Below, piece by piece: positions 2,729 through 63,468 of a stretch of 64,000 nt of DNA. The stretch lies in the NCBI GenBank assembly GCA_918797485.1, contig CAKKNE010000002.1, positions 2,604,001-2,668,000 of the forward strand. The letters run 5' to 3'. A program made the position numbers and the translations under genes. Every line of letters starts with the position of its first letter. Within the stretch, counting starts at the first letter, position 1. Source of the DNA: Pelagomonas calceolata (taxonomy: Eukaryota). Under the pieces are notes generated by a model. That model worked only from the letters and a program-made list of their open reading frames with translations. It had not been told where the DNA came from and did no database searches.

Positions 2729-2751
2729 CTAGCGTGCGCGCGACACACTAG
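2729..2751 (-). promoter_or_regulatory. CTAG dyad element, variant copy (rc CTAG-TGTGTCGCGCGCACG-CTAG)
   Basis: Two CTAGs 15 bp apart, TGTGTC...CG arms like copy 42119; about 160 bp upstream of ATG 2567. Confidence 0.45.
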
Positions 2752-2785
2752 CGCTCTTACCGGAACAAAAAGCAAACAAACAGGG

Positions 2786-4597
2786 CTATAAATCAGAGGG
2801 GGAGGAAACAGCCGCCATGGTGTGCGCCAGGTCCACGGGCGCGGCCCGGAAGTGGTGGAACGGCGTGTACGCGTCGAGGTTCGTCACCTTCGCGCAGTAG
2901 ACGTCCGCGTACTTCTCGATCTGGCGCGCGATGTGCGACTTGTCGTCGTGGCCCGCGCGTGTGAGGTAGCCCCAGTGGCGGTTGAAGGCCTCGCCGACGC
3001 GCGCCAACAGCGGCTCGAGCCGGTCGTCGACCTGCTTGACCGCCGCCCTTAGAGATACGACGTCCCTTCTATATTCCTCGGCATGCGCCTCGTCGGCTAA
3101 GCCGGGCGACGGCTGCCGGTCCTGGTCCCACCTTTCCAATGCTAGTCGCTTCACGTTCAGCTCGGACTCGAGGTTGTCCCTCTCTCCAAGTAACGCGTCG
3201 ATCTGCGCCGTCCTTCTCGTTTCTGTGGCCGCGGCTCTAATCTCCAAATCGAGCTCTTGCACGACGAGCGCGGTCCGCCAGCGCATCGATGCTTTTACCG
3301 CGTTCGCGTCCGTAAATAAATGATCGCCCACATACAGCAACTCGTCCTCCTTGCTGTTGAAGAGTTTCTCGACTAAGCGAGCCGACCCGCCGCAGTACAC
3401 CCTTCCACATCTCATCTGCTTCGCTTCCCTCAGTAGAGGCGCGCTCCCCGCGACGCGCTCCCGCGACCCGACCTCGTCCAAGGCGAGTTCGTAGAACGGC
3501 AGTTTTTCGGTGGTGAAGAACGCCGGCTTCCTCGCTGAGCACACGACTACATCGAACAAATCGCGCCAGTCCGCGCCGGACGGCTCGAGGTCGTCGCCGC
3601 AGACAAAACGCATCATCGTGTCTGTGTACCACCAGTCGCTGTTCGTGATGAGCGCGAGCTTCTTGCCCGAGCGGCGCTGGTCCGCGAGCATCCTTCTCAG
3701 CTTCTCGGGCTCGCGCTGCGTGTAGCGCGCCGGGTCCGCGAAGACGGCCTCCTTGATCTCGGACGGACTCGCCTTGCCGCCGTGCGCCCGCGCTAATGCC
3801 GACGAGACCGCTCGGTAGAGGTCCGCGTAGTTCGAGACCTTCGACGCGTCGAAGGGCGGGCTCGCGTCTCTTACTAACGCTCCCGAGTCCAATTTGCTCA
3901 CGAGCTGCGAGTACAGCACGCCCTCCGACACCGAGAACAGCGTGTTGAGGAAGGAGAAGCGCCGATCTCTCAAATCGACGAGTTTCCGGCCGTAGAGCTC
4001 CTCCAGCTCGTCCGGCGCGAGGCGCCGCTTGCCGTGCATCGCTCGACGCACGAAGCCGTGCCTATCTATTTTGAGGAAGTTGCCCCGTTCCGTGTCGATC
4101 ACGAGGCCTCGGCAGGCGAGGTCCGGGTCGTCAAATTCTAAATCCGAGACGGGAAAGCCGAGGTACTCGAGGCACGCCTTCGCGCACGCGTAGGCCAAGG
4201 CCTCCCACTCGCGCCACTTGTAGTGCACGATCGTGTAGTCCATATCATAACCTATAACCTTGATGTTCTCGAGCTTCAGGTCCCGGCTGCAGAACACGCG
4301 CGACTCCCGCTTCGGGGTCTGCGCCGGCGTGGCCGACGCGTACGGCAGCTCGTTCGTCAACGACGTCTTGTCGTAGGTCGTGGACGAGCCGTAGCCGATG
4401 GCGTGCTTCTGGCGCGTCGCGTTCTTCCGGAGGTCCGAAACGAAATCGCTCGACGGCGTCGAGAGCTCCTCGGTCGGCGCCAAAACCTCGTCGCCGTGGA
4501 CGTCCTCAACACTCTTCAGCTGGATGCGGTGGCGGCGCGGCGTCGGGGCGAAGCTCCGCAAACCGGGCAGGAAGGCGAGGCACAGCAGCGCGCGCAT
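2786..4597 (-). CDS. HAD-IG family 5'-nucleotidase (cN-II-like), predicted plastid-targeted
   Basis: VFCSRDLKLENIKVIGYDMDYT (motif I), LITNS, ARKP, LYVGDHLFTD; N-terminus MRALLCLAFLPGLRS-FAP. Confidence 0.9.
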   Translation of the reverse strand: MRALLCLAFLPGLRSFAPTPRRHRIQLKSVEDVHGDEVLAPTEELSTPSSDFVSDLRKNATRQKHAIGYGSSTTYDKTSLTNELPYASATPAQTPKRESRVFCSRDLKLENIKVIGYDMDYTIVHYKWREWEALAYACAKACLEYLGFPVSDLEFDDPDLACRGLVIDTERGNFLKIDRHGFVRRAMHGKRRLAPDELEELYGRKLVDLRDRRFSFLNTLFSVSEGVLYSQLVSKLDSGALVRDASPPFDASKVSNYADLYRAVSSALARAHGGKASPSEIKEAVFADPARYTQREPEKLRRMLADQRRSGKKLALITNSDWWYTDTMMRFVCGDDLEPSGADWRDLFDVVVCSARKPAFFTTEKLPFYELALDEVGSRERVAGSAPLLREAKQMRCGRVYCGGSARLVEKLFNSKEDELLYVGDHLFTDANAVKASMRWRTALVVQELDLEIRAAATETRRTAQIDALLGERDNLESELNVKRLALERWDQDRQPSPGLADEAHAEEYRRDVVSLRAAVKQVDDRLEPLLARVGEAFNRHWGYLTRAGHDDKSHIARQIEKYADVYCAKVTNLDAYTPFHHFRAAPVDLAHTMAAVSSPSDL

Positions 4598-4802
4598 GGT
4601 AGCTTTGTGGTGGCACCGCGTCGGAGGCAGAGGGGCTGCAACCACGTGCAGCTCTGGTGGTCTAAATCTAGGGGTGCGCTCGCCTTGGCAAACGTTAGCC
4701 GTGCGTCTTAAAAACAGCTATTGGAAGCGAACTTCTTGCCTGGCCTTCAGCGAACCAAAAACTCGCGAACGGCGGGTGTGAATCAGCTGCAAATCCGAGT
4801 AT

Positions 4803-4823
4803 CTAGCGGCTGTAAGACACTAG
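4803..4823 (-). promoter_or_regulatory. CTAG dyad element (rc CTAG-TGTCTTACAGCCG-CTAG)
   Basis: Close match to the window consensus; about 205 bp upstream of the nucleotidase ATG; flanked by an A-tract. Confidence 0.7.
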
Positions 4824-4912
4824 AAAAAAAAAAGACGCTCACAGAGGCACCGGGCGAACGTTGCACATTGTTCGGGGGGGTTTGCCGAGGCGGTTCTGCT
4901 TAGAAGGAGGTC

Positions 4913-4947
4913 GCTGTTATGAAAGAAGCGGCCCGCGCCCGCCGCCG
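4913..4947 (+). repeat. Dispersed 35-bp repeat, copy 1 (GCTGTTATGAAAGAAGCGGCCCGCGCCCGCCGCCG)
   Basis: 32/35 identical to 35922-35956. Confidence 0.8.
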
Positions 4948-5062
4948 ATGAATCGGCGACGCGCGGTGTCTCCCCCCCAGGGGCTCCGCCCACTAGTCCT
5001 AGCACCGTAACATCGTTTACTCACAGAGGCAATCAAAAATCAACAAGAAAATAGAAATTAAA

Positions 5063-8000
5063 TCACAGAAGATGCGTCGGCGACCGCGGGCGCGGAGACG
5101 GCGACCGCGGCTCCTCCGGCGGCGCCGTGCTCGTTACCCAGACCTCGCCCTCGTCGCCGAAGTGCTCGAGCACGAAGGACGACTCCGCCTCGAATATTTC
5201 TAGTGTCATGCCCGGCGCCTTGGCTCGCAGCGCCAGCGAGTGTACCTTGCACGTGTACACGCCGACGCCCGGGTGCCGATCTAACGTCTGCCGCGCCGCG
5301 ACGTAGACCCGCGCCAGCAACGAGAGCCCGGCGACGAGGCCCTCCCTCTGGTTCGAGCCCGCTAACGCCCGCACGTTCCGCAACAAGTCCGGCGCATAGT
5401 AGATGAGGATCCCCCACCCGTCGTCGACGCCCGTCGCGTTGAGCTCGCCCATCAATACCGCCTGGACGTCGAGGTCCAGGAGGCCGAACGCGCCCTTCAG
5501 GACGACCGCTTCGCCCGGCGTCGTCAGGCGCAGCATCAGGGCCAGGCGCACCAGGTGCCGCTCGCTCCGATTTTGAGCGTCGAAGGCGAAGTTTAGTAAA
5601 GACGCCCTGATACTAAGGAACTCGTCGTAGACGCGCGCCGCGCCCACCGTGCCGTCTTCCAAGCGCAGCAGCGCCTCGATGGCGCCCCGCATATTTTTCA
5701 GCAGGCCGGGCACGCGCCAGAAGGCAGGAACCCGCAGGATCCAGAGCAACAACGCGAAGCGACACAACCGGGGCCCGTCGCGATCCCTCGCTAATCTTCG
5801 TAATGAAAGCAAGGACGCGGGCAACGATTCGCCCTGGGCGAACTGCATAAGGTTGAAATTAGCGCCGATGACCCGTCGCACCCGATCCTGCAGATGCGGC
5901 GCCAAGCGCCGGTAGGACGGTAGCAATTCAGGACACGCGGCCATGGCGTTTCTCAACGTGCGGTCATGGTCTACAGATTCCAATCTAGTTTCGCGGGAGA
6001 CATCCTCTGCGAAGGCCGAGACTTTGCCCACGCCCGAACCTGTGTGGAAATCAAATGTCGGACGCAGTCGTCCCCGTAGCTGCATCTGCTCGATGGCGTG
6101 TAGATTCCACACCGCCCAAAACAAGCCAATGCAACCAAAAGCGCGTCCAAATTGGCCGCTCGGGCCTCGAGGTAGCTCGTCCGGGCCTCGTCCGGTGCCG
6201 CGGCGACGCCCGCCGTACTCCCGAGCACGGGACCGAAGAGCTCGTGCTTGAGAAACGTCACGTCTTCCCGCGAGAGCTTCTCGACCTCTTTCTCATTGGA
6301 CAGGATGCGCACGACGACTTCGATCGATTGCATACGGTTCTTGTACTCGACGTTCGCCGACGTCCCATCTGTCAGCGTCTGATCCACGAAAAAGGCGACC
6401 TCCGGATACAAGGCGCTACACCGCCGCGCGAGGTACGGCGTGCTGTGGTACTCCCGGTCCTCGTCCTCGACGACGTGGCCACATGCTGTGAGGGCGGCGC
6501 CGCGGATGTCGCCCTTCTTGAGCAACCCCTCAATATCGTCTTGATCGAGCAGATCGTCGTCCAGATCCTGCACGACGGGCGCATGGCTCCTACTCCCCCA
6601 CACCTGGTCCGCATCCACGTCGAACTTGTGCTCCACGCGGTGTTGGAGCTTGGACAGGTTCCCCACGAAGTCGTCCTTCGATCTCTGAAAACAATCGAAG
6701 AAGTAGTTCGACACTTTCGATACCAGATTGTCGCGGTGGTGGGTCACCATGCCGTGCTGCACGAAGCACCAGAACTTTGAGGACCGGTTGTGGGCTTTGA
6801 CGATCTTTTCGGACAGCATGGCGATCAACAACGTCATCAGGAGCAATCCTACGGTCAACAGATAGGCCACGGTCAACGCGGCTCTCGTAGCCGCCCCGGC
6901 GGTGCGCTTCGAGAGGATGTCCCAGTACGTCACTTCGCCGAACGGACTTCCAAATTTCATCCCTAGGGACGTCGCCAGCGACCCGTAGTGGTCGTCGGAC
7001 CACGCATATAAGATGTATTCGGCGGACGCGAAGGCCATACAAGCTAATAAAAAGAAGACGACCCAGACCGCTAACGATCGCACCATAAAAATGATATCCA
7101 GCATCAGGATCGCGGCGCGCCGCCACACCCTCAAATGCTGGAGCAGGCGCGCCCAGGCGACGAACGACGCCGCCGCCAGCACCTGGATGTGCCGGTCGGC
7201 CCATTTGAACTGCTCGTCGGCGGCGACCCAGCCGTCCTCGTCGTGCAACCCAATGCTCCCGTCGGTTTGCTTCATGCGGATCGCGAAGTAGGCCACGCTC
7301 AGCGCGAACAGCGTCCAATCCAATAGGTTCGCCGGGTTCGATAAATAGGTCGTCCGTTCCTTGCGGAACTGCATGATTTCCTGGCCGATGAAGAAGAGTA
7401 CCAGTAAAGCGCAGGCGATTTCCAGGCCGAGCACGGTGTGCTGCGACCCGTCCTCGTCCTCGTTGTCCGCCACGCCGCCGCCGCCGCCTCCTTTCAAATA
7501 GGGCCACGCGCGCGCCGCCCGCGTCTCGACGTAGGCGACGCCGCCGCCGCCCTCCGCGGGGAACTCTATGACAAAATCGACCCTGCAAAATAAATTGGCG
7601 TTCGCATTATATACAGTCAGGCGAATGTCTACGGCTCGCGTCGCGGCGTCGATCCACTGTGAGGTTTGGAGGCGGTCAATCATCAAACGCCGCGCCGTCG
7701 CGTTGACGGACGACAGGTCCACCGCAAAACCGCCCGCGGGGTAGCTCTCCCTTGATAAACGCCGCGAGATGCCCCTCCTATCTAACTTTTTGCCCGATCG
7801 CCACAAGAAGCCCTCCTCCTGGAGACCGTAGGCCGTCTCGGAGAGCATGGACTTCGACCCCCGCCACCACGGCTTCGCGTCGGCCCCCGGCCGGAAACAA
7901 AAGCCCACCACATCATCTAAGCGATCCGGCACGTCACACGTGCTGGATCGGCTGCGCCACTGCGTCAGGCGCGCCCGCCCGAGGACCACGCCGAACCCGG

Positions 8001-10983
8001 GCAGCACCGCCCTGTCGTTCAAGGGTACTTTCGTGGAGCCGTCCCAGCGCACCGGCGCCTCCTCCGCCAGCGCTTCGTGGAACGTCGTCCGCAGAAACGA
8101 ATAGACGTCGTCCGCGGACCGTACGTCGTCAAAGCTCAAGCCATTCGACTTGCGCGCCGCGACCGATTCGCCGTCGAAGGCCTTCGCAAGCCCGGTGGCG
8201 AAGGCCGAGGTCGCGCCCCGCCGCGCGCCGCCTTCGATGCACGCCGTGCCCAGGGCCGTCAAACAGCCCACAAAAACCAAATACAAGAGTAACGTTGCTA
8301 CGGAACCCGCGAAGCACCGTCGCGACCACACCGTGCCCACCGCCTTTTGGATGCGCGCGTCGCCGAACAATAAGTCGTATAAGGCGTCGCCTTCCAGATG
8401 CCGGAGACCGTCGTCGTCGTCATCCGACTCGCGGATGGTCAGGCGACTGCCAAACGAGAAGGGCCGCTTGACGAGCGGTGGCCTCTGCGACTCTTCGTCG
8501 TTCAACGAGCGGCTCGACGTGCCGATGGAATCACTTAAACTTCGGATCCAGCTCCCCGTCCTCGTGACCAGTTCCACGGGCTGGTCGATCTGCCTTCTGG
8601 ACTGGTCCGCGTGGACGCGATCCAACCGCCTCCGGTTAAAGTTGAAGCAGTGCTTCTGGAGCGGCTCCGAGAAGGCTTGGAGTCCGGCCTTATTCCTCAG
8701 ATTCAAATCCGCGCCGTGCTTCAGGAGCTGTTCCACGACGCCCTCGAACACGTAGCGCTCCTTCTGTCTTCTCCTATTAACTCGAGGCGAGTTCGCCCGC
8801 TTCGAATCGACGCGCGGGTTCTCGTCCAATCGCGCGATGCTCCGCTCGTCGATGGACAGACCGCGATCCACCGTGTGGTACCTCAGCAACGCAACATGTA
8901 AGGGCGTGTCCAGCCACTCGTTTGGGGCATTGACGTGGGCCCCATGGGATAATAAAACAGTAAGAGCACCGGTCGCGCCGGCCCGAGCCGCCGCGAGTAA
9001 AGGTGTATTTCCATCCTCGTTCCTCGCGTTCACGTCGGCGTTGTACTCGAGGAGCTTCCGGCAGATCGCGGCGTGCTTCCTATCGGCCGCTAGATGCAGC
9101 GGCGTGTGGCCCCGCTTATCACTCACCCCGACTTCCGCGGCGCCGTGCACACAAAGCGCGGTGATGGTCTCGACTTGTTCTATGTGGCAGAGGGCGGCCA
9201 GATGCAGCGCGGTCCTTTGCTTGTCGGTATCCTTGACGTTCGCGTCGATGTCTTCACACAAGCTTTTCCTATGCAAAGGGTCGCACAAAGCTTCGACGAC
9301 CTTCACATAACCTAACGCGGCGGCGTGCATCAACGCCGTCCTTCCCTCAAGATCTCGCGCATTGATCTTGACCCGCGTCTCTCCCCCGTACCACGCCGCC
9401 GGCCAGCCCTGCGTGTGCAGGGTTAACCTCTTCACGAGCGCGGCGTCTCCGAGAATAGACGCTTCGTGCAACGCCGTCCGTCCCTGGCCGTTCGTCGCCG
9501 AGAGGTCGCAGAGGTGGAAGGACGCGCCGCGGGCGTCCTCGTACGGTCTCAACAGGACTTCCACAACTTCCTTCTTGCGCTTCCGAATGGCGTGCAATAA
9601 CGGCGACCGGTCGGCATCCCCGAGGTCCATATCTAAGGCGTCCCGCCGCCTCGTCTTCAGCACTCGAGCTCGCGCCTCGTACAACGCCTCGACGACTCGT
9701 GTCAGGCCCTTCTCGACCGCCAACCGATACACGTCGCGGGCCCATGCTTCCGTCTCGTCGGTGCGCAACCACGCGCCGTGCTCGAGTAACAGAATAGAAG
9801 CCGCTTCCCGCCCGTGGGCCACCGCGACTTTGAGCGGTCTACTCCCCGCGGCGTCCGCGGTGCGCGCCGAGGCGCCCCAGTCCTCTAATAAAGTCTTCAG
9901 CATGTGGACCTGGTTCCTTAGTACAGCATGCATCACGGCCGTCCGCCCGCGCACGTCCCGCTCGTTCACGATGGTGCTCATCCTCGCTCCACTTAAACTT
10001 CGCAGCGCGTCGGCGACGTTGTCCCTTCCGTAGGTCGCCGCGAGCATCAGCGCCGTGCGGCCCCGGTCGTCCTTCACACCAAGGACGTCCACGCCACTAT
10101 TCACAAATTTTTGCAGGAGGAAGTCGTGGCCGCGGTGGGCGGCCGCGAGGGCCTCGCGCGCGACGAGCGATTGTGCTTTTTGTGATGCGCCCAGCGCCCT
10201 GAAAGCACGTACACGTTCATTCAACGTGGCCCGGTCGTCGGCCCGTGCCAGCGACCACTGCGGCATCTCGTCCCTCAGAAATTGCTCGTCGGTTTCCGGT
10301 AGGGCTATTACTGGCACGTCAAACGTCAAACCTTGAGCTGTCGCTCTTCTAGCGAGCGCCTCCGTCACGACGATTAGTCGAGCGCCGCCAGCTAAGGCTC
10401 TCTTCGCGCGCCTCGCGAAGAGGTCCAAGTTGAGACCCTCGGCCTCCGTCAAGGCGATGCGGTGCGCTCCATCCTCATTCACCTCCGTGTCCTGGGCCAC
10501 GCGCCAGACGCGGCCGTAGATGCCATCCTGAGGCATCGCCGTCCCGATCTCCGCCACGCGGCACGGGTGCGCGATGCCCGTCAGCTCCAGCACGGCGTAG
10601 GTCTGGTCATCGTCTTCGTCGACGCGCGTCAGCGAGTACCAGGACAGGCCCCGCCCGTAGTTCTGCTGTATCACGGTGCGCACCGCCTTCTTGAAATTCA
10701 AACCAGTCGAGAGAGCGCGTACGGCGGGCGGCCGCGGCGGGTCGGGCCTCGTTATTTCCTCGTCGTCGTCCTCGATCGCGCGGCGCGGCGGCGGCGACCG
10801 CCGGCCGGCGCGCAGCTTCTGCACGCGGCGCTTCTCGGGAGAGGTGAGGTCCATGTCCTGTCTTCTGCTCGTGCTCCGGGCGGTCTCGGGCTGCCCTTTT
10901 TGAGTCGAGACGTGAAGACGACGGTCTGAAGCCCTCGCAGCAACCACGACTGGCAACGCTCTCGTCCGCAGCGCCCTATGCAA
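5063..10983 (-). CDS. Large ankyrin-repeat polycystin-2/TRP-like cation channel; PA-like N-terminal domain and extra C-terminal domain; two exons (intron ~6040-6110/6122)
   Basis: >10 ankyrin repeats (GRTALM.AA, GHTPLHLAA, GNTPLLAAA); polycystin-domain signatures (LG..RL.Q.R, YPAGGF.VDL, WIDAATRAV, YNANANLF..V..VIEFP..G); six-TM block ending LLMTLLIAML; GT-AG intron joins the 1670-aa and 353-aa ORFs in frame; alternative start 10854. Confidence 0.8.
6040..6122 (-). mobile_element. Introner-like intron with terminal inverted repeats
   Basis: Minus strand GT...GATTTCCACACAG; TIR GTGTGGAATC / GATTTCCACAC; carries CACGCCATCGAGCAGATGCAG shared with 53658-53678; donor at 6122 or 6110 both restore frame. 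Confidence 0.7.
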
Positions 10984-11108
10984 GCGGAGGCGACTCCCAG
11001 ACTCCAGTCTTGGTTTGATCTCGATGTCGGGTGCGGGAGGGCTGTGTCGAGGAGTCTGAGAGCGACCTTAGCTTTGTCTGATGTCATTTCAACGGGTTGG
11101 GAAGCTTG

Positions 11109-11130
11109 CTAGTGTCTTACAGGCCGCTAG
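11109..11130 (+). promoter_or_regulatory. CTAG dyad element (GCTTG-CTAG-TGTCTTACAGGCCG-CTAG-C)
   Basis: Consensus copy between divergent channel and NAT-fusion genes. Confidence 0.75.
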
Positions 11131-11293
11131 CCCGGTTCAGCTGCTTCTCCCTATCGAGTGATAAAACGCCACAAGTGCAACATTCTGTCGCGTTGAGGTT
11201 AGGAAGATAGCGTGCATTGCTACGGCAGTGCGGGACAGCTCGGCATTTTGAAAGGCTCTCCTTCAGCTACAGGCTGAAGGCTGGCACCGCAGT

Positions 11294-13315: not shown

Positions 13316-13576
13316 AGAGTAATCTGTTTTTTGTGTCATCTACACTTCGGAGGGCGCACTACTATGTCTTCTGATTGCGGCTCGCTCGCGCCTCGAGGTG
13401 CGGGGTGAGGACGAACCGTTTGTGCTCAAAACGCGTGTAGCAGGCCAGCACAATCGAAGGGCTGCCGACAGAAGCTCGCGCGAGGGGGTAGAGGTAGCCC
13501 CGAAGGCGCACACAGCGAGGCGTCGTGTGTGGCTGCGCGATCGGTGACCAACCGCCGTGAGGAGCAAAGGAACGCA

Positions 13577-16663: not shown

Positions 16664-16814
16664 CTCTCATTGCTGCCCCTAGGTATGCCTATCGATGGAA
16701 CACATGGTCGCAGTGGGCAGCCTGCCTTGTGACGGGCACGAATGCGTCCCTTGAGGTATGGAATGGCCGCACCTAGCAACATAAAAGGCTGCCTGCCCTC
16801 GGCTTGCGTGATTG

Positions 16815-16836
16815 CTAGTGTCTTTCTCGACGCTAG
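16815..16836 (+). promoter_or_regulatory. CTAG dyad element (TTG-CTAG-TGTCTTTCTCGACG-CTAG-C)
   Basis: Between divergent genes starting at 16663 and 17023. Confidence 0.7.
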
Positions 16837-17022
16837 CATCGCAGAGAGGTCGCGAGACGCGTGGAAGCTCTCCGTGCCTCTGCGGCATCGCAAGCACGAG
16901 CGAAGGCACATTCCTGCTCTTGCCGACCAGCGCGAGGTCTGCTGCGGCAGTTCAGGCGCTCCGTTTGCCCACGCGCTGCGCATTGCTCCCGAAACCGAGC
17001 TCGAGTCACTGGCAGCATTGTC

Positions 17023-21162: not shown

Positions 21163-21655
21163 GGTCTACAGCCTCTGGTGGAGATAGCAGCCTCTGGTGG
21201 CTACACCAGTCGTTCGCAACGACTCCTCGGCTCCTTCGCGCTTCACGAGGATGCGCGCAAGGGCTGCCCCTTCCTGCAGCGGCCGGCGCGCACGACGGGA
21301 TGGCAGCCACTCGGCGCTGGAGCCCGAGCCGAGCCCGTACGCTCATGGTCGGGCCGCGTACGCGTCCAGGGCGAGCGCCACCCGTATACGGATCCCACGG
21401 AGGACACTGAACGATCCGAAAAAATAGCCCCTGGTGCATTTCGATGGGTTCCAGTGTGCCGTGCGTTAGGGCCAAAATCGCGCCCAAGGCGACGAGAGCC
21501 GCCGCGGCTGGCCTCGGAGGCGCGGTAGGGCTTAGTTGGACGCTTGTGAAGCCGAAACACGCTTGACTAGGCTGCCCATACGCACATTAGGGACAGGCTG
21601 CCCAGAGGCGCGACCTTGCCAAACGCGTGCCGTGCAGCAGCTGTTGGGGGACACG

Positions 21656-22468: not shown

Positions 22469-23458
22469 TTAATGAGAATGAGCGTAGCGCCAGGGCCCGC
22501 AGTAGCCATTCGAGCGCCGGTTGGACCCGTGGCACTTCAACTCCGAAGAGAAGCCGTCGTCCGGCGGCGCGTGGATCGACGCGTCGTACGCCTCGGAGTC
22601 CAGGAACCTCGTGGCCGTGAAGGGCGGGTGCGCCTCGAGCAGGTGAATGCCCGGCGTGCCGCCGCCCGTGTGGAGCCGTATTTTGCCGTGGATCTGGGGG
22701 TCCGCGACGATGCGCACGCCTTGTCCATAAAGTTCCTTCACGGCGTAGCAGGACAGGAACCAGCTGTACATGAACCGCGCGCGGTCGAGGGCCGCGCATT
22801 TCCCGTCCCGGGCGAGCGCGTCGACGCGCGCGTACGTCGTGAGGACCCGTTCCGCGCTCTTCCGGCTCCCGAAGAGGAAGACGGCGTCGGGCGGGTCGCT
22901 CGCCGCGTAGACGTACCGCGGCTCCAGGTTCGTGGAATGACGTATAGGTGACGTAAACTCAATATCCGCGCGTACGCACGCGACCCGGTCGAAGGCCTTC
23001 CCCCGTATTGATTCGCGCTTCGTCAGCGCACCATAGGCCGCCTGGAGCACGCCCCACCACGCCTCTATCCGCACCTCCAACGGATCCCGGGAAGACGAGT
23101 GGCGGTAGAGGCAAGATGTTTCTCGTGACCAAATGCACTTGCCTATTCGACTGGCGTTCCGCGCGTAGCCATGGGTAAGCTCGGCGCCGGGCCGGATGTC
23201 TATGAATGAAGGTTCCAGGGTGGCCGCCACCACGTCCCGTAACGCCCGCACCTCCGCCTCATTGTATATGTTTTTGTTGTAGTGCACGCCCTTGAGCAAC
23301 ACGAGCGTCTCGGAGGCGCCAAACGCGTCCACAACAAACTTCTTCGTCGCCCGCAGGCGCGCCTCGTCGACGTCGTAGGCCGCGCCCACGAGCAGGACGG
23401 CGGCCTCGGACGACGCCTCGGCGGCCCGCGCCGCGACGAGCAGGAGCAGTCCTCTCAT
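22469..23458 (-). CDS. Secretory-pathway hypothetical protein, possibly glycosyltransferase-like
   Basis: Signal peptide MRGLLLLVAARAAEA; FDRVACVRADIEF resembles a D.V.R.R.D motif of GT-like proteins. Confidence 0.5.
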   Translation of the reverse strand: MRGLLLLVAARAAEASSEAAVLLVGAAYDVDEARLRATKKFVVDAFGASETLVLLKGVHYNKNIYNEAEVRALRDVVAATLEPSFIDIRPGAELTHGYARNASRIGKCIWSRETSCLYRHSSSRDPLEVRIEAWWGVLQAAYGALTKRESIRGKAFDRVACVRADIEFTSPIRHSTNLEPRYVYAASDPPDAVFLFGSRKSAERVLTTYARVDALARDGKCAALDRARFMYSWFLSCYAVKELYGQGVRIVADPQIHGKIRLHTGGGTPGIHLLEAHPPFTATRFLDSEAYDASIHAPPDDGFSSELKCHGSNRRSNGYCGPWRYAHSH

Positions 23459-23598
23459 CCTATGCTCTCATGACGGCGCATGGATGGGTTGCGGCGCGCC
23501 GGCGGCACGCGCGCGGTGCGCGAGAGAGCACTGCGGCTGCCCGGTGCCGGTAAGGGCAGCTGTGCGGCGCGACAGGAGCTGGGAGCGCAGGCTGCTTG

Positions 23599-42288: not shown

Positions 42289-45200
42289 ATGGAGGAGGCC
42301 GCGGCCGTATGGATCAGAGACGACGACGAGGGCTGGCTGCCGGGCGTGGTGAAGCAGGTCGATGACGATCAAATAGAAGTGGACGTCGTGGACGACGACG
42401 GGACCACCATCGAGGCGATCACGGTCCCGACGCAAGAAATCAAGAGAAGGGACGCGGACGCGAAGCCCGTCGACGACCTGATTTCCTTAGCGGTGCTGCA
42501 CGAGCCGGCCATCTTGCACGCCTTGCGGCGACGGTACGCGAGTGGCGAGATTTATACCTTCAACGGGGCCATTTTAATCGCGGTGAATCCCTTCAGAAAA
42601 CTAGCACTATACACCGACGACATCCTGGAGCGCTACGCAAATAGAGGCCTGTTGCACGCCCAGGGCGTGCCCCAAGCGACGTTGCCTCCGCACGTGTATA
42701 CGGTCGCCGACGCGGCTTATAGAAGTATGTCCGAAGCTATTACCTCAAACGCGAAGCAAGGATCGCAGTCGGTCTTGATTTCGGGAGAGAGCGGCGCGGG
42801 CAAGACGGAGACCACCAAAATCGTGATGAGGTATCTCACGGTAGTAGGAAGAGGGTCCTCGTCCGAGAACGCGGTGACGGATAAGGTATTGCGGAGCAAT
42901 CCTATCCTCGAGGCCTTCGGGAACGCGCGGACCGTGAGGAACGACAATTCGTCGCGGTTCGGGAAGTTCATCGACCTCGAATTCGACGACCGGGGCGCGA
43001 TGCGCGGCGCGGCCATAGATACTTATTTACTGGAAAAAATAAGGCTGCCGCGACATGCCCAGGGTGAAAGGAACTTCCACGTCTTCTACCAGTTAAGTGC
43101 CACCTCCAACAAAGATGATGCGTGGCAGTTACCTCCCTCACCGGCAACCACCTGTACTTATCTCAAGCAGGGCGGCGTGCCTTCTTTAGCTTCCATGGAC
43201 GATGGTAAAGAGTTCGACACGGTCGTGGAGGCTTTGAAAGCATTGGGTGTGTCTGACGGTGACGTGAAGCACGTTTTTGCGTTGGTCGCGGGCCTCACGC
43301 ACTTAGGAGACGTCCTTTTTGAATTTGCCGTTGGTGATGATGGCGGCGGTTCCCACGTCGAAGATCGAACTGTGTTAGATCGGGCTGCATCCTTGTGCGG
43401 CCTAGATGCGGATAAATTGTTACAAGCAGTCACGCAGCGAACGGTCTCCGCGAGAAACGAGTCCTATACCGTTCGCCTGGTGCCGCAGGACGCGTGTCAA
43501 GCGCGGGACGCCGTCGCCAAAGCTTTATACGGCAGATTGTTCGCGTGGTTAGTAAAAGCAATAAACAAAGGCATCCAGAAAAATGATTTCCGGAAGGCGG
43601 CGTCCATAGGTGTATTGGACATCTTCGGCTTCGAGTGTTTTAGTACAAATTCCTTCGAGCAGCTCTGCATCAACTACACGAACGAAACGTTGCAGCAGCA
43701 GTTCAATAGATATGTTTTTAAATTAGAACAGGAGGAATACGAGCGCGAGAAAATTACGTGGAGCTTCGTCGAGTTCCCGGACAACCAGGACTGTCTGGAT
43801 TTGATTGAAGGTACTAGGAAGGCATGTCCCCCTGATGGTGGTTTATTAGTGATGTTAGATGATGAGTGTCGGTTGCCTCGTGGGAGTGATGCGAATTATG
43901 CTGCAAGAATCCTGAAGTCCCTCAAGTCTCATGATCGGTTGTGTGCTTCGAAAAAACAAGTAGTAGACGGTATTTTCGAAGTGAGGCACTACGCTGGTCC
44001 TGTGCCCTACGTCGCGCAAGGCTTCCTCGAGAAGAACAAGGATGAATTACCGAGTGACGCCGTACAACTCTTCAACGACACAAAAGGTTTCCTACAGGAC
44101 TGCTGCGCCGCCTTTGATCAGGAGACCACGGACGTGAAGAAGAAGAAAGTGACCGTCGCGTCCCAGTTCAAAACCCAGCTGAGAAAATTGATGGAGTCCA
44201 TCAGTAGTACCACACCGCATTACGTGCGATGCTTGAAGCCGAACGATAAAAATATACCGGACGAGTTCGTGCGGAAGCGCGTCGCGGAGCAGCTGAGATA
44301 CGGGGGTGTGTTAGAAGCAGTTAGGGTCGCGCGCTCGGGCTTTCCGGTGCGCCTACCGCACGCCGAGTTCGTGCGACGCTACGCGGCGTTGGGGCCTTGT
44401 CCATTACAGGGAGATCGGAAGGGCTGCGCGTCATTAATCGAGGCCTTCGCGTCCGATGACAAAGACGCGTACCAGCTCGGCCTGACCAAAGTTTTCCTGC
44501 GGAAGAACGCCCATGATTCTTTGGAGACGGCGCGGTCGTCCGCGCGGCGGTCCGCCGCCGTGCGGTTGCAATCTTGGGAAAGGAGGCGCCAAGCACTCAC
44601 GAGGGTCGGGTCGAGGCTGCGCGCGGGCCGCGCGTTGTCGCGCTGGGCGTTCGCGGCGCTGGCTTCCATGAGAGTCCGGTCGAAACGGCGCGAGTGGAAT
44701 GCGCTGCGCGTCGAGACGGCCTGGCGCTGTGCGAGGCATCGGAACCGCTTCCGTGCTGTGACGCGCGGCGTCCTCGCGCTGCAGAAGCTCGGCCGCGGCG
44801 TCGGCGCGCGCCGGGCGACGGCCCAGAGGAGACGCGTCGCGGCTACGGTGCGGATCCAGAGCGCCGGCCGCGGTTTAAAACCGCGCCGCTTCCGGACCAA
44901 GACGGTCCGCGCGATAACACAAACCCAAGCTTTCGTAAGGCGGTCCATGGCGAAGCGCGCGGCGCAGCGGGCGCGAAGTGAAATGAAAGACGTCGCCAAC
45001 CTCCAGACGGAGGCCGAGGCCATGAAGGAGGAGATTCAACAGTTGCGCGCGAGGGCCCAGCAAGAGACGCTCGAGCGCGAGCACGCCGCCGTCGGCGCGG
45101 CGACCGCGGAGGTCTCGAGACTCAGGGACGAGCTCGACGCGGTCCTCGCCGTCGGGGACGCGAAACTACGGAGCGCGGAGCGCCTCTGCTCGAAGCTGCG

Positions 45201-47341: not shown

Positions 47342-47662
47342 CGCCTCCTCCCTTTACGAGTCGGTTCCGTCGCCCGGGCGCTCTAGTCCGCCGGCTGGCT
47401 GTTTTGCAAACAAGGGGGAACTTGTTTTGCGCGTGGTCAAGCTACGCAGTCCGCGCGACGCTCGACGTTGTCGATGCAGGCTTGCCTGCAGTTGGGCCTT
47501 GCGAAGCTGTGGCGTCTCTCGCGCGCAGAGAGGGCTCGCGCAGCGATCGATGCCAGCGGCGCCGACGTCTTGGCTCCACACCTAAGCACTACCACAAAAA
47601 CTTGCCCTCGTGCCTTGTTGCCGAGGATCCCTTGCTTGACAACTACAAAAACTTGCTTGCTG

Positions 47663-47682
47663 CTAGTGTCTTACGACGCTAG
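47663..47682 (+). promoter_or_regulatory. CTAG dyad element (CTG-CTAG-TGTCTTACGACG-CTAG-C)
   Basis: Near-perfect inverted repeat around TTAC; between divergent LST8 and KEA genes. Confidence 0.75.
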
Positions 47683-47868
47683 CTTCATAAAAGCTTCACC
47701 TGAGCCAAAACCCACCGTCACGTTCACATTTTACCCACAGTGCACCTCCTCTTGCAGCCCTGAGGGCGGCTGGCTCAAAACTGCTGCAAGCCGGTAGCTA
47801 GACTAGCAAAACACAGCACTGCTACAGCGACTGCTACCGGGCTTGCGCCGCGGTAGCGACAAGACAAG

Positions 47869-51803: not shown

Positions 51804-51936
51804 TTTGCTCGCTGGGAGTGGTTGCTTTTAAAAACTTGGAGTCGACTGCGACGTCGTGAGCTTTTTGTGTACTGTCTCGCGTCAGTGGTCTATTTAGCGC
51901 CCTGGCGGTCTGCTGTGCCCGGATGGCCTTGCAAAT

Positions 51937-51957
51937 CTAGCGTGTCTAAGACGCTAG
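51937..51957 (-). promoter_or_regulatory. CTAG dyad element (rc CTG-CTAG-CGTCTTAGACACG-CTAG)
   Basis: Midway between divergent ATGs 51803 and 52071. Confidence 0.7.
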
Positions 51958-52070
51958 CAGGAGCTCAAAAAAACGTAAGCTCTCAGTCACGCGTTCAAGC
52001 CATCACGCGTGCAACTCTCTCGATGTGCACACGCTGCCGCTGCCAGTAACCAGTGCAGATGTGAAGCATC

Positions 52071-53974: not shown

Positions 53975-54367
53975 ATGGCCGAGATAATCAAGAAGAAGAA
54001 GAAGCAAACGAAACTCAAGGACGACAGCGAGAGCGAGGAGGAGGATTTGGACTTCGTTGTCGCCGACTCCGACGACGGCTCGAGGGACGGCGACGACGAC
54101 CTGGACCGCGCCGAGGGCAAGCGCAAGCGCGACTCGTCGAGCGACGAGGACTCGAGCGACAGCGATAGTGACAGCGACGACGACGACGACATCGACCACG
54201 TCATGTCGAAGGACGAGGTCGCGGCGCTCAAGAAGGACCAGGGCAACGTCATCCCGCGCGCGAAGCGGCGCGCGGCGCTCGCGTCGGGGATTGGCGACGC
54301 GTCCGCGCTCGAGGCCATCCAGCAGGCGAAGCCGGATTCCGACGAGGAGGCGGAGTTCGAGTTCTAG
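53975..54367 (+). CDS. Small acidic low-complexity protein with NLS-like basic clusters
   Basis: MAEIIKKKKKQ, D/E/S-rich tracts, KRKR; GC3-rich codons. Confidence 0.7.
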   Translation: MAEIIKKKKKQTKLKDDSESEEEDLDFVVADSDDGSRDGDDDLDRAEGKRKRDSSSDEDSSDSDSDSDDDDDIDHVMSKDEVAALKKDQGNVIPRAKRRAALASGIGDASALEAIQQAKPDSDEEAEFEF

Positions 54368-54380
54368 AGTAGATAAAACT

Positions 54381-55202
54381 TTAGCATATCGCGTTGACCC
54401 CGTCGTCGCCCCCCTCGGCCGACCCGCCGGCGCGGAGCCAGCGCATCAGCCCGGAGAACGCGCCCTCGCTCCGCGGTTTCGCGCCGACGACGCCGAAACC
54501 GTCGACGAGCGCGACGAGGTCGAGCGCGTCGGGCGACGGCCCCGCGCCTCTCACCAGATACTGCTCCGTCCTTCGTAGTACGGCAGCGACGGCGACTCTT
54601 CCCGGGTCCGCGCACGGCCGCGGGAGCCTCAGCGCCAGCAATGCGACGCCGTGGCCGATGATGCCATCGACGCGGAGCGCGCCCGCGATGGTACATAAAG
54701 CGCAGCACGTCGGCGGCAGCCTTCTCCTTACCGCCGCCCGTAATTCGGGCAGTTGCAGGCGCCAGGGCCGCGCGGCCAGCACCACCACGACGTCCGGTGG
54801 CCCGGCGAGCGACGCCACCGCCCGGCGCGCCAATTCCGCCCCCACGGACTCGGCCGGGTCGCCCGAGCGGTAGTCCTCGGCCTCGTGTTCGGTACAATTC
54901 TTTGAACAGTAGGCAAAGCCCTCGTGGCGCGCGGCGTCGACGGCCGCGACGTTCGCCGCGAGCGCCCGTAAGCTGCGCACCGTCGTCGACAAAGCTAGTG
55001 TAGACCGCAGGTCGCAGAATTCGAGCACCGCCGCCCAGACGCCGTTCAGGGGCTCGGGCGGCGTCTCGGCCGCCTTCGTGTCGACCGTCAGAGCGTAGGT
55101 CGGCGACCGCCACAAGCGAGCGCGGTCGTCGGCGGCGCCCCACGTTAAAGACGGGTCGTCCGGAACGTAGTGCCACTTTCTGGGGTTGTAGTGGAGGCGC
55201 AT
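54381..55202 (-). CDS. F-box-like + FIST-N-like protein (FBXO22-type architecture, apparently truncated)
   Basis: LNGVWAAVLEFCDLRSTLALSTTVRSLR (F-box-like); AVASLAGPPDVVVVLA...RRLPP..., GIIG, GVALLAL (FIST-N-like). Confidence 0.45.
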   Translation of the reverse strand: MRLHYNPRKWHYVPDDPSLTWGAADDRARLWRSPTYALTVDTKAAETPPEPLNGVWAAVLEFCDLRSTLALSTTVRSLRALAANVAAVDAARHEGFAYCSKNCTEHEAEDYRSGDPAESVGAELARRAVASLAGPPDVVVVLAARPWRLQLPELRAAVRRRLPPTCCALCTIAGALRVDGIIGHGVALLALRLPRPCADPGRVAVAAVLRRTEQYLVRGAGPSPDALDLVALVDGFGVVGAKPRSEGAFSGLMRWLRAGGSAEGGDDGVNAIC

Positions 55203-55470: not shown

Positions 55471-55495
55471 CTAGGGACCTGTAAAGACATACTAG
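55471..55495 (-). promoter_or_regulatory. CTAG dyad element, degenerate (rc CTAG-TATGTCTTTACAGGTCC-CTAG-C)
   Basis: 17-bp spacer but retains TGTCTT(T)ACAGG; between divergent 55202 and 55621. Confidence 0.5.
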
Positions 55496-55620: not shown

Positions 55621-56022
55621 ATGCGAGCGGGCGAGCGAGCGAGGGCTGACGCGATGACGGAAGCAGCCAATAGCCTTGCGGCGGCCCTTAGTCGTCTGCG
55701 GCGCTTCGAAGAAGCGAGGTCGCTGCTACGTAACACGATCCCCCTGGCGCAACGCGTTGTTGGTCACCCTATTGTTGGTGAGGATAGAGAACTCACCCTT
55801 ATAATGAAACTTACATACGCGAAGTGCCTCTACAAAGACGACGGCGCCACGCTCGACGATCTCCGCGAGGCCGTGAACACGCTCGAGGACACGGAACGGA
55901 CTGCGCGGCGCGTGCTCGGTGCCGCGCATCCTCTCGTGCAAAATCATATTGGTCGCTCCCTGGGAGAGTCGCGAGCCACGCTCCGCGCCCGCGAGACGCC
56001 GTCGCCAGCGGAGAGTGCGTAA
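55621..56022 (+). pseudogene. Isolated C-terminal TPR-like helical module, probable 5'-truncated member of a larger gene family
   Basis: AANSLA..L..L.RFEEARSLLR...AQRVVG and LEDTERTARRVLGAAHP are kinesin-light-chain-TPR-like; preceded by GC low-complexity sequence rather than a normal N-terminus. Confidence 0.5.
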
Positions 56023-59292: not shown

Positions 59293-59549
59293 GGGTGTAG
59301 GGGCTGCCCGCGGCTTGTATGAGCGTCGAGGCCGGACGGAGGCTACCGTAGTATTGTTAGCATGGTCCTGGCCGGCCTTTAGGCGTGCTTGGCCCCGCAC
59401 CGGGCGCGCTAAGGCCCTGGTTTTTGACAGCGCCCTTGGTTGGCAAAACCAGGCTTACCCCGCACGCAGCTTGCGGAGTGCTCGCGCGCCGAGGCCTCCT
59501 GGGCAGGGGTCTACGCACGGCGCTTCGACAAGATCGGCAAAAAAATGCG

Positions 59550-59572
59550 CTAGCGCCTGTAAGACACACTAG
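59550..59572 (-). promoter_or_regulatory. CTAG dyad element (rc TTG-CTAG-TGTGTCTTACAGGCG-CTAG-C)
   Basis: About 260 bp from each divergent ATG (59292, 59832); adjacent A-tract. Confidence 0.75.
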
Positions 59573-59831
59573 CAAAGCCCTCCACCCGCCGGCCGGTGCG
59601 CTGAGGCTTAATCTATCCTCCCAGGCCCCGCTCTGCACGCGGGTATATTTTTTGCCATCTCTCGCCGCCAGCCCGGGCCAGACGCCTGCGCCGCGCCGCT
59701 CGCCAGCTGCAGCTGCACCTAGAGGCGCCCGGCCAAAAAAGAAAGAACCCCCGGGACGCCGCCCCGGGCGCGCCACGGAGCGCCGCCGCGGCCGCCGCGC
59801 CCCACTGCTCCGAACAAAACACCAGAACACC

Positions 59832-61303: not shown

Positions 61304-63385
61304 TTAACTCGACACCGGGACCCCGAGCCGCTCGAAGTACGCGTCCTCCCGGAACGGCCGGCCCAGGAACGCCTCCATCATCGCGGCGCCGCCGGCCGCG
61401 GCGCCGGGCTCGAGCACGCACTCGCGGAAGCGGCGCCCCGCGGCCGCGTCGAGCTCGTCGCCGAACTGTTTGTACGCGTCGACGGCGTTGACCTCGCTCC
61501 AGAGGTACGAGTAGTAGCCCGCGTCGTACCCGATGCACATATGGTACCACGTCGACGCGAAGTGTGTCCCGGGCGCTTCGGTGAAACCTGCAGTCTCCCT
61601 ATAAATTTCCTGCCAAAGACCACACGCGTCGACGTCGGCGGCTGACGCGAGCGAGTGCATGGCCATGTCGTAGCGACACATCGCAATATACCTCGCGTTG
61701 CCCAAACCGGCTAGGAGGTGCCGGTTCTCCGCGAGCGCCTCGATCGTTTTTGACGGCAGCGAGGCACCCGTCTCCGCGTGCGGCCTGGCAATCTTCGCCA
61801 AGACCGCAGGCGCGTACCTGCGCGGGCGACCCGTGACGCGGCGATGGCGTGGGGGCCGCGTAGAAGCAGACAACGTTTCGGACGCGGCCGCCGCGTACAC
61901 AAACTGCTGCGTGAGCATCGACGGCACCTCCAACATATCCATCTCGACGCCGCCCGGCCAGGGCACCATGGGCCAGGCCCAGCCGAGAATCGACGGCTTC
62001 GGCGCGCCGGCGAGGGCGTGGAAAACGTGGCCCAGTTCATGTAATAATGTTTCGACCTCGCGGAAGCGTAATCTTCCATTCGCGTCGCCCATGTTGCCGA
62101 GCACGGCGCAACAATTCGGCGCGCCGTTCACAAGTGCCGGCCGCAGGGGCACGACCATCTGATGGCCGAACTTGCCGTCCCTCGACTTGAGGTCTAAAGC
62201 CACGTGGCCCACTATGATATCGTCCTTTGCGACCTCATATAATTCGCAGTCGTCGTGCCAGAGTTGTGCGTCGTCGAGCGGGCCGCGCACCGTAAATCCA
62301 AATAAGTCCTCGCCCAAGGCTTTGATCGTCGCGGGGACCACTTCAGACGCGGGAAAGTGGGGCTTGAGCGCCTCCTCGTCGATGCCTTTCGATTCTCGGA
62401 TCTGTCGACCGAAATACGCCGTGTCCCACGGGTCCAGGGCGTCGGCGCCGGGCGTCTCGCTCCTTTTCAACGCGAGGAGCGACGCGTAGTCCTCGTCGCG
62501 CTTCGGCTTCAGGCGCGTGACGACGCGATCCAGGAAGGCGTTCACCTCGTCCGGCGACGAGGCCATGTTGCCCTTTAGCGTCCCTTCGGCGTGGCTCGCG
62601 AAGCCCAGGAGTCCCGCTATCTGGGCGCGCAGCGCTACGACCCTATTCAGGCGCCGCGCGTTCTCCGGGCAGCGCGAGGTTCCTGCAATATAAGCCTTGC
62701 GCCGCGCCGCGGGGTCCCGCGCGTGCTGCAATACGGGCGTGAGGGTGGGGGCTTTGAGTGATACGAGCAATTTGTCGCCGTCTCCGACGGGAAGGGCGTC
62801 CACCAGGGCCGCGGGCACGCCCTCGAGCTCGTCGCGCGTCAGTGCGACAGTAGATGAGTCGCCGTTGATCTCTTGTTCCATGGCGGCGCACTCGGCTCCT
62901 AGCTCTAGCTTCAGCTTCGCGACTTGTTCGCGCGCAGCGGCATCGGCGAGCGCGAGGCCATTCGCCTCGAAGCGCGCAACGTGCTTATCGCGTGCGCGCG
63001 CCAGCAGAGGATCCGTCGTCTCGGACGCCTTGATGGCGTCGTAAAGAGCCTTGCGGCCGTAACAGGTTCCGAACGCATCGATAATGCTTCGTTTCGCCGC
63101 AGCACCAGCATCACGTGCCGCGGCGTCCGTCGCCACGAGCGCCGGTAAGCAAACTTCAGCGGACCCTACTGCGACGGCGTCCGTGGCACGAGTCCACGCT
63201 GCTAGTGCGTCTTGTGCATTGCCGCTTTCTATGTCAGTCGCTGCGGCCTCGAGGCCGCTCACGAGCGCTGCAGCAGTATCTCTAATCTCTGCTGCTCCAA
63301 GCCGCAGTCTGAGCTGCGTGTGCGGGCACCGCATCGCTCGGGCTGCAGTGAGGAGAATGATTGCGCGATGAATTGGGTGCAGCAT
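61304..63385 (-). CDS. Peptidase M3 (thimet oligopeptidase/neurolysin-like); in-frame intron 61818-61898
   Basis: LR.QIA.LLGF.SHA, L.PWD..YF, DL.SRDGKFGH, VETLLHELGHVFH, VEMDMLEVPS, GYDAGYYSYLWSEV. Confidence 0.93.
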   Translation of the reverse strand: MLHPIHRAIILLTAARAMRCPHTQLRLRLGAAEIRDTAAALVSGLEAAATDIESGNAQDALAAWTRATDAVAVGSAEVCLPALVATDAAARDAGAAAKRSIIDAFGTCYGRKALYDAIKASETTDPLLARARDKHVARFEANGLALADAAAREQVAKLKLELGAECAAMEQEINGDSSTVALTRDELEGVPAALVDALPVGDGDKLLVSLKAPTLTPVLQHARDPAARRKAYIAGTSRCPENARRLNRVVALRAQIAGLLGFASHAEGTLKGNMASSPDEVNAFLDRVVTRLKPKRDEDYASLLALKRSETPGADALDPWDTAYFGRQIRESKGIDEEALKPHFPASEVVPATIKALGEDLFGFTVRGPLDDAQLWHDDCELYEVAKDDIIVGHVALDLKSRDGKFGHQMVVPLRPALVNGAPNCCAVLGNMGDANGRLRFREVETLLHELGHVFHALAGAPKPSILGWAWPMVPWPGGVEMDMLEVPSMLTQQFVYAAAASETLSASTRPPRHRRVTGRPRRYAPAVLAKIARPHAETGASLPSKTIEALAENRHLLAGLGNARYIAMCRYDMAMHSLASAADVDACGLWQEIYRETAGFTEAPGTHFASTWYHMCIGYDAGYYSYLWSEVNAVDAYKQFGDELDAAAGRRFRECVLEPGAAAGGAAMMEAFLGRPFREDAYFERLGVPVSS
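61818..61898 (-). mobile_element. 81-nt stop-free introner-like intron with 7-bp direct repeat
   Basis: Minus strand GTACGCG...CGCAG|GTACGCG; contains CACGCCATCGCCGCG; removal restores QQFVYAPAVL after the EVPS motif. Confidence 0.75.
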
Positions 63386-63446
63386 GCACAGCTCACCAAT
63401 GGGCTATGCCGTGCAGAATGCCTTGCTTTGCCGCGGCACTGGCTTG

Positions 63447-63468
63447 CTAGTGTCTTACAGGACGCTAG
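63447..63468 (+). promoter_or_regulatory. CTAG dyad element (GCTTG-CTAG-TGTCTTACAGGACG-CTAG-C)
   Basis: Consensus copy between divergent ATGs 63385 and 63564. Confidence 0.75.

Follow-up and report, generated by a model that had tools for sequence, protein, structure and literature searches.

What is the function of a short bipartite sequence that recurs between the genes of a 64-kb stretch of Pelagomonas calceolata DNA (contig CAKKNE010000002.1; this whole stretch is called the window below)? In the first-pass annotation 15 copies of an element containing two CTAG tetranucleotides were pointed out, mostly between head-to-head genes, and a general bidirectional promoter element was proposed. 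Our analysis suggests that the element is, on balance probably, a promoter word at the putative docking site of a sequence-specific general promoter factor, and that it marks the place where transcription starts. Its consensus, (GCTTG)CTAGTGTCTTAC-N2-5-CGCTAG(CT), is 22-29 bp long and consists of block A, (GCTTG)CTAGTGTCTTAC, and block B, CGCTAG(CT); the spacer between them, of 2-5 nt, is under little constraint.

Gaps between genes were classified on a map of 37 genes derived from open reading frames (ORFs) filtered by G+C content at third codon positions (GC3) and from Pfam matches. This map contained 16 divergent, 5 tandem and 15 convergent gaps, and 86.3% of the window was coding. The sequence described previously was present at all 15 positions, and a weak sixteenth copy was added at 34728-34745 (Table 1). 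A search for CTAG-N10-20-CTAG found exactly these 16 sites, compared with 3.96 ± 2.01 matches (maximum 9) in 200 sequences shuffled by dinucleotide. When at most two mismatches were allowed, the 12-mer CTAGTGTCTTAC matched 13 times; 1.71 matches were expected, and the highest number in any of 100 shuffles was 7. Eleven of these matches were among the 15 copies pointed out previously; the remaining two, at 5200 in an ORF and at 50312 in a convergent gap, had two mismatches each and look like chance occurrences. When the promoter gaps were compared with the remaining window, nearly all of the most enriched 7-mers came from the element.

Exactly one copy was found in 14 of the 16 divergent gaps (13 had been noted before), and no gap contained two (P ~4e-5, Poisson). 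The copies lay in either orientation, as had been stated. Two of the five tandem gaps had a copy, the 15 convergent gaps had none, and altogether the element was located upstream of approximately 30 of the 37 genes. The coding 86% of the window was also free of copies, provided that the FHA gene on the + strand starts at the ATG at 63564. This is the third in-frame ATG of the ORF and lies downstream of the 63447 copy; we infer that it is the gene start. If translation started at one of the earlier ATGs (63384 or 63399), the 63447 copy would fall in the first FHA codons, and 15 of the 16 copies would be intergenic. The 55471 and 63447 copies had been counted among the 13 head-to-head cases in the first-pass annotation. 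On long ORFs alone their gaps appeared tandem, and their assignment to the divergent class rests on re-annotation: the 55471 gap is divergent because 55621-56022(+), uncounted on long ORFs alone, is a TPR_10 ORF of 133 aa. The distances between copies and flanking ATGs were 57-375 bp, similar to the 60-320 bp estimated at first but spanning a wider range. The flanking genes encode myosin head, WD40, V-ATPase d, SBDS, protein kinase, M3, M18 and M50 peptidase, ion channel and thymidine kinase domains. These Pfam families are unrelated, which supports the original view of a promoter element as opposed to the mark of a pathway regulon.

A different explanation for this distribution would be a role in chromosome organisation, with the element lying in promoter gaps but not driving initiation. 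It could then be a boundary or a similar site, for example an insulator, a replication origin or a place where cohesin or condensin is loaded. A long, information-rich sequence (approximately 34 bits for the two blocks in the window copies, 16 of them fixed by the search pattern) that occurs once per gap, independently of orientation, would suit such a role, and so would the strong differences in RNA depth between paired genes (see below). A boundary or an origin, however, need not avoid convergent gaps, all 15 of which were empty, and the tight link to RNA 5' ends described below also argues against this explanation. Replication origins are expected to be much sparser than one per ~4 kb, the density found here. 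For these reasons we consider a boundary function improbable.

Additional copies were collected from marine metagenome contigs of the Joint Genome Institute (JGI) by an exact-pattern scan that permitted spacers of 2-5 nt only. At least 125 distinct copies were found in at least 124 stretches, on contigs with G+C contents of 51-73%. Viral contigs yielded no exact copy. The 123 listed loci and the motif sites of the window do not overlap, so the loci represent independent sites. In the listed loci of at least 1 kb, called ORFs account for 70.6% of the DNA, and a single one of 81 listed copies overlapped an ORF, a weak one of 72 codons (binomial P ~2e-41). Twelve extra loose copies in the listed loci were all outside ORFs. 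Both neighbours were called for 48 listed copies, of which 23 were in divergent, 12 and 11 (by element orientation) in tandem, and 2 in convergent arrangement; the nearly equal tandem numbers indicate no orientation bias among the matches listed. The element was thus on the promoter side of a gene in 46 of these 48 cases, half of the 46 being unidirectional, and for another 32 listed copies one neighbour was called. The median distance to the ATG on the promoter side was 175 bp (interquartile range 121-221 bp, n=91 listed copies). Since 23 divergent arrangements stand against 23 tandem ones among the 48 listed, the element marks promoters generally and not bidirectional promoters alone. Of the original proposal, the general promoter function is upheld, with copies only in promoter-bearing gaps of the window and with RNA 5' ends on their flanks; the specifically bidirectional function is not.

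The metagenome copies also show which parts of the element are conserved. Among the at least 125 exact copies listed, the spacer was 4 nt long in 76, 3 nt in 35, 5 nt in 8 and 2 nt in 6. Its sequence varied as well, with AGGC in 27 of 125 listed copies and approximately 40 variants altogether; conservation concerns the two blocks and does not extend over a longer repeat. In the 125 listed copies the positions 5' of the core preferred G (58%), C (45%), T (68%), T (72%) and G (77%), those 3' of it C (82%) and T (54%). Conservation ended at -5 and +2, and from -6 and +3 outward only background was seen. The same two blocks are carried by the window copies, which were not chosen by the exact pattern; a variant with a TG insertion recurs at 2729, 42119 and 59550. 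Inverted symmetry is confined to GCTAGYG / CRCTAGC about an asymmetric centre. The left block, (G/C)TTGCTAG, resembles the half-site of the RFX X-box, but the second half does not fit, and this candidate was rejected.

The adjacent A/T tracts mentioned in the first-pass annotation were also found: a run of at least four A or T was present within 30 bp of 10 of the 16 window copies. Around 116 listed metagenome copies, T runs were concentrated close to block B, with 57 TTTT matches within 30 bp on that side compared with 0-9 per 10-bp bin farther out, and A runs were enriched, more weakly, on the block-A side. TATA words were rare near the same copies, with no more than six per 10-bp bin.

Multiplicity and partial symmetry raise the question whether the element could be a selfish short palindromic repeat, such as a remnant of a miniature inverted-repeat transposable element (MITE) or a sequence like the bacterial repetitive extragenic palindromes (REP), or a recombinase target that piled up in open promoter DNA. 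The at least 125 exact, near-identical copies, the imperfect inverted arms and a dispersed repeat alongside, on the same side in three of three cases (see below), are compatible with this possibility. We nevertheless judge it very improbable. The flank profile of the 125 listed copies reveals neither similarity past -5/+2 nor a target-site duplication, and an all-against-all BLAST comparison of the 123 listed loci detected no common unit around the element. One copy in each of 14 of 16 gaps, and never two, is a misfit with random insertion, as is the preservation of the blocks next to a diverse spacer with the idea of a repeat unit. Moreover, the hairpin formed by single-stranded DNA is weak (-3.4 to -7.5 kcal/mol), and two of four copies folded no better than shuffled sequences.

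To relate the element to transcripts, poly(A) RNA-seq data, namely the raw reads of two runs (X21 and X22) and the assembly contigs of two sets (X1 and X5), were used for regions 23001-43000 and 1900-5400, which cover nine copies. The library is antisense-first, with + strand genes covered by reads whose first mate is on the minus strand. Piles of read beginnings were located at RNA 3' ends, for example at 38544, 9 nt beyond the V-ATPase stop codon; piles of read ends therefore mark RNA 5' ends. At all nine copies the nearest RNA 5' end was 10-60 bp from the element. The individual distances were 10, 14, 17, 20, 21, 27, 28, 28, 42, 46, 50 and 60 bp, followed by 120 and 122 bp. Five copies (4803, 27394, 30336, 37194 and 42119) could be mapped on both sides. 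They lie in untranscribed cores of 65-193 bp within gaps of 386-465 bp, the core bounds being 4786/4851, 27384/27457, 30290/30370, 37074/37234 and 41997/42190, respectively. From gap lengths and core widths, the chance of all five elements landing in the core is ~1e-3. The divergent 5' ends are 73 bp apart at 27394 and 80 bp apart at 30336, with the element between them. RNA depth was unequal in gene pairs (68 versus 4-20 around 27394, and 0 versus 28-131 around 34728), and such wide differences suggest that the element does not set the level of expression.

These data also bear on the possibility that the element acts in RNA, as a hairpin in the 5' untranslated region (UTR) or as a small RNA gene. 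A stem of 7 bp can be drawn, and since reads from other loci contain the word, at least one copy elsewhere is transcribed. At eight of the nine copies, however, the transcript contigs halted before reaching the element, no tRNA gene and no Rfam family was found in the window, the predicted fold is as weak as stated above, and the variant at 23599 breaks a pair in the sense orientation. A function in RNA thus seems hardly credible.

In the closest rival explanation the basal machinery (a TBP/TFIID-related or SNAPc-like complex) would itself recognise the element as part of the core promoter. The element would then be a substitute for TATA whose near-dyad allows pre-initiation complexes to form in two directions. 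Such an element would account for the RNA 5' ends close to all nine copies, for the 73- and 80-bp distances between divergent 5' ends, for the rarity of TATA words around the listed metagenome copies and for the occurrence upstream of approximately 30 of the 37 window genes. What it would not readily account for is the unfixed spacing on both the block-A and the block-B side (10-60, then 120 and 122 bp), although the imprecision of contig ends may hide a preferred distance. It also fits poorly with the expression of some genes that have no element and with the cases, 2729 and 23 of the 48 listed in metagenomes, where a gene is present on one side only. Direct reading by the basal machinery is therefore in our opinion unlikely, even though it comes nearest to the observations after a dedicated promoter factor.

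For the promoter word bound by a general factor, the following mechanism can be envisaged. The two GCTAG-centred blocks would be read by a putative factor that has a pair of DNA-reading modules or binds as a dimer. Occupancy by this factor, together with the outward-facing T runs, would create a short nucleosome-free initiation zone at unrelated, TATA-poor genes, and transcription would start from the open core on whichever sides bear genes. In such a scheme the element would provide position or permission and not the level of expression. A much bolder version, which we put forward only tentatively and think rather doubtful, is that one lineage-specific factor reading GCTTGCTAGTGTCTTAC-N-CGCTAGCT replaces TATA and the initiator (Inr) at most pelagophyte nuclear promoters, nucleating initiation genome-wide, with two divergent transcripts arising from a core of less than 100 bp and several thousand sites per genome. 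We know of no eukaryote for which a promoter architecture based on one long bipartite word has been described.

Several observations weigh against a promoter word of this kind. The distance between element and 5' end was not constant, varying between 10 and 60 bp on the near side, with values as high as 141 bp on the other, and most of these 5' ends are imprecise ends of assembly contigs, not mapped start sites, with read piles of 5-13 molecules. One X1 contig (23727-27550) crosses the 27394 copy, and reads and contigs from another locus run through the shared word (loose ends 39724/39754). The element is not obligatory: divergent gaps 907-984 (78 bp) and 21163-21655 have no copy, and the same is true for three of the five tandem junctions, two of which are real gaps (13316-13576 and 54319-54380) and the third an overlap of ORFs. 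Because an exact-pattern search supplied the metagenome copies, the invariance of the core and the retention in locus pairs (see below) are partly due to ascertainment. Finally, the known range of the element comprises this organism and its close relatives.

Table 1. Copies of the element in the window, their gene context and the RNA ends mapped on their left and right sides
Position	Strand	Copy	Context	RNA, left side	RNA, right side	Remarks
2729-2751	-	degenerate, CTAGTGTGTCGCGCGCACGCTAG on - strand	tandem gap, upstream of gene 1989-2567(-)	contigs end 2622/2669	none, no + strand RNA	unidirectional; RNA 3' end of upstream gene 2787-2799
4803-4823	-	consensus	upstream of 5'-nucleotidase gene 2786-4597(-)	contigs end 4756/4786	~4851	+ strand RNA on right over dispersed repeat
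11109-11130	+	consensus with GCTTG flank	divergent gap 10855-11293
16815-16836	+	1 mismatch in 12-mer	divergent gap 16664-17022
23599-23619	+	variant CTAGCGTCTTAA..CACTAG	divergent gap 23459-23746	unmapped	X5 contig begins 23646
27394-27415	+	consensus	divergent gap 27202-27618	X5 contig ends 27384	begins 27457
30336-30356	+	consensus, 3-nt spacer, A6 left, T5 right	divergent gap 30209-30594	30290 (7 read ends)	contigs begin 30370/30384
34728-34745		weak 16th copy CTAGCATCCAGCCACTAG, absent from the first-pass list	divergent gap 34354-34977	none, gene 33532-34353 zero depth	34773-34781 (5-13 read ends each, + strand RNA)
37194-37214	-	consensus	divergent gap 36972-37389	contigs end 37053/37074	begin 37234/37239	further read 5' pile at 37401
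39733-39754	+	1 mismatch (TTAT), T7 right	divergent gap 39540-39861, SBDS on left	SBDS contigs end 39704/39712	not listed	word shared by reads and contigs of other loci
42119-42140	+	variant, TG insertion	divergent gap 41849-42288	5' ends 41987/41997	contig begins 42190
47663-47682	+	consensus, 2-nt spacer	divergent gap 47342-47868
51937-51957	-	variant, at gap midpoint	divergent gap 51804-52070
55471-55495	-	degenerate	between 54381-55202(-) and small TPR ORF 55621-56022(+)
59550-59572	-	TG insertion, A7 beside	divergent gap 59293-59831
63447-63468	+	consensus	62 bp upstream of peptidase M3 ATG (63385, -); upstream of FHA ATG 63564 (+)

Two pairs of orthologous-looking metagenome loci allowed the element to be compared with its surroundings. 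In L016/L112 the coding part was highly conserved and the promoter had diverged, and the element was retained with a 1-nt change in the spacer. In L052/L094 the retained element was followed by ~35 bp of diverged sequence and then by a conserved block of ~150 nt. Because both members of each pair had been chosen by the motif, retention provides weak support. The diverged L016 (1430-1480) and L112 promoters have also kept CGTTTGCGCTTGACAATTGTCT and CCACGTGGG (alignment A2, columns 75-115), the latter similar to an E-box or G-box, which suggests that these two words are candidate gene-specific sites beside the general element. The ~150-nt block (L052:790-940 and L094:135-287), after which the sequences diverge again, matched no Rfam family and is a candidate for a conserved 5' leader or for a small gene of the non-coding type.

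A dispersed repeat of ~165 nt was seen in three places (window 4851-5015, L070:2167-2332 and L065:837-920). In each of them it lies on the block-A side of the element, at a distance of 18-82 bp, and its orientation relative to the element is the same; the L070 and window copies are 94% identical. The window repeat is covered by + strand poly(A) RNA at a depth of 46-168, and hundreds of reads from other copies of the repeat match only a 40-nt core, 4937-4977. It has no match to an Rfam family, and Rfam and tRNA searches around 4700-5100 and in loci L052, L094, L070 and L065 gave only chance-level matches. The element may drive this repeat as a family of non-coding transcripts, or the repeat may target the element. 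Another repeat, of ~137 bp and 80-93% identity, was present in five loci (L007:1422-1561, L022:1783-1922, L039:286-422, L055:2488-2602 and L042:853-973), not beside the element, and may be of the introner type or a dispersed repeat of another kind. The TPR_10 ORF 55621-56022(+) is a member of a multi-copy family: stretches of loci L001, L005, L034 and L076 share 68-83% nucleotide identity with it.

Some features of individual genes and transcripts were also noted. The ORF 33532-34353(-), which has a high GC3 and encodes 273 aa, had zero depth in both raw-read runs, and the divergent thymidine kinase gene was well expressed; the sole copy in the gap between them is the weak 18-bp variant. The DUF6829 ORF 5063-6085(-) and the ankyrin/polycystin ORF 5971-10854(-) overlap by 115 bp in different frames, which is explained either by a wrong upstream ATG in one of them or by an intron joining both. 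The 3' UTRs are seemingly very short: convergent gaps measure -4 to 310 bp (for example 26255-26262, 38536-38561 and 35832-35835), and RNA 3' end piles were located approximately 10 nt or less from stop codons (38544) or at or just inside the stop (2787, 40742-40745). Polyadenylation at or in stop codons reportedly occurs in another stramenopile. In ORF 30595-33396, reads and contigs of all four runs connect 31652 to 32022 through 12 different letters, and loose ends occur at 31632 and at 32039. At 31632-32039 a segment of ~370 bp distinguishes the window from the sequenced strain or its transcript, and the cause may be a structural variant, a repeat collapse or unusual splicing.

As judged from its sequence, the window is part of a pelagophyte nuclear genome. 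It is packed with long, mostly uninterrupted ORFs encoding eukaryotic Pfam domains such as myosin head, V-ATPase subunit d, SBDS, polycystin channel and FHA, and its V-ATPase d protein is 100% identical to a protein in ENA; the best named matches of this protein, at 82% identity, are those of Pelagophyceae sp. CCMP2097 and Chrysophaeum taylorii. Its G+C content, 58-68% per 4-kb slice and ~63% overall, and its coding density of 86% fit the values for Pelagomonas calceolata, 63% G+C and 11% intergenic DNA, given in the genome preprint (10.1101/2021.10.25.465678). The metagenome loci appear to come from pelagophytes other than Aureococcus and CCMP2097, as shown by the Rab28-like protein beside the L037 copy, which is 72-73% identical to that of Aureococcus and 59% identical to that of Pelagophyceae sp. 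CCMP2097.

The same preprint reports a set of 16,667 genes (10.1101/2021.10.25.465678). At the ratio seen here, 16 elements to 37 genes, such a set would correspond to ~7,000 copies, provided that the window is representative; this figure is an extrapolation and not a count. In the main text of that preprint the words 'motif' and 'promoter' do not occur. The element had not been recognised as a described motif at first, and the literature searched, on promoters and motifs of Pelagomonas, pelagophytes, Aureococcus and stramenopiles, likewise contained no description of it. Nor did that literature contain any account of the promoter grammar of pelagophytes. The exact element words occurred only in papers whose titles suggest unrelated listings of primers or tags. 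Pelagophytes include some of the most abundant picoalgae of the open ocean as well as bloom formers. If a word of ~29 bp marks most of their promoters, it would offer a handle on the protein that organises initiation in a compact, TATA-poor genome. It would also improve the annotation of gene starts and 5' UTRs in pelagophyte genomes and marine metagenomes, and it could serve as a lineage marker for contigs and as a minimal bidirectional promoter core for genetic tools. It would, in addition, be a natural test case for one site serving two divergent genes.

Several known systems resemble the element in part. REP/REPIN sequences and MITE remnants are likewise short, imperfect inverted repeats that are strictly intergenic and occur in many copies. 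In contrast to them, the element is located at promoters and not at 3' ends, is present once per gap, and has no terminal repeats, target duplications or parent element. The TATA box, the HomolD box of fission yeast and the oomycete initiator and flanking promoter region (INR/FPR) share with it the closeness to the starts of TATA-poor genes and the status of dominant signal in promoter gaps. The element differs in being much longer, near-dyad and common to two divergent genes, and no fixed distance to the 5' end was seen.

Nearer parallels come from sites of general regulatory factors (GRFs) of yeast and from animal promoter words. Yeast Reb1, Abf1 and Rap1 sites next to poly(dA:dT) are also found in unrelated promoters and in either orientation, with outward-facing T runs and an untranscribed core. 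The analogy with Reb1/Abf1 sites drawn at first is thus apt as far as the promoters of many unrelated genes are concerned. It is less so for position, as the 10-60 bp between element and RNA 5' end are shorter than the distances typical of Reb1 and Abf1 sites. The element, inspected by eye as a consensus, does not match the Reb1 and Abf1 words, and it is bipartite and ~29 bp long compared with 7-13 bp for the yeast sites. No single yeast factor is known to reach the occupancy seen here, 14 of 16 divergent gaps. Among animal sequences, the NRF1 palindrome, GABP/ETS sites, the ZNF143 SBS, Drosophila DRE/BEAF-32 and the M1BP Motif 1 are similarly promoter-proximal, tolerant of orientation and associated with housekeeping-type or head-to-head genes, and the long, high-information form of the element is reminiscent of sites for multi-zinc-finger proteins such as ZNF143 or CTCF. 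These animal motifs belong to another lineage and have other sequences, and animals use a mixture of them, whereas the element alone covers most promoters. By analogy, then, the element may be functionally akin to yeast GRF sites and to the bidirectional and housekeeping promoter words of animals, while differing from them in sequence, in length, in closeness to the start site and in near-universality.

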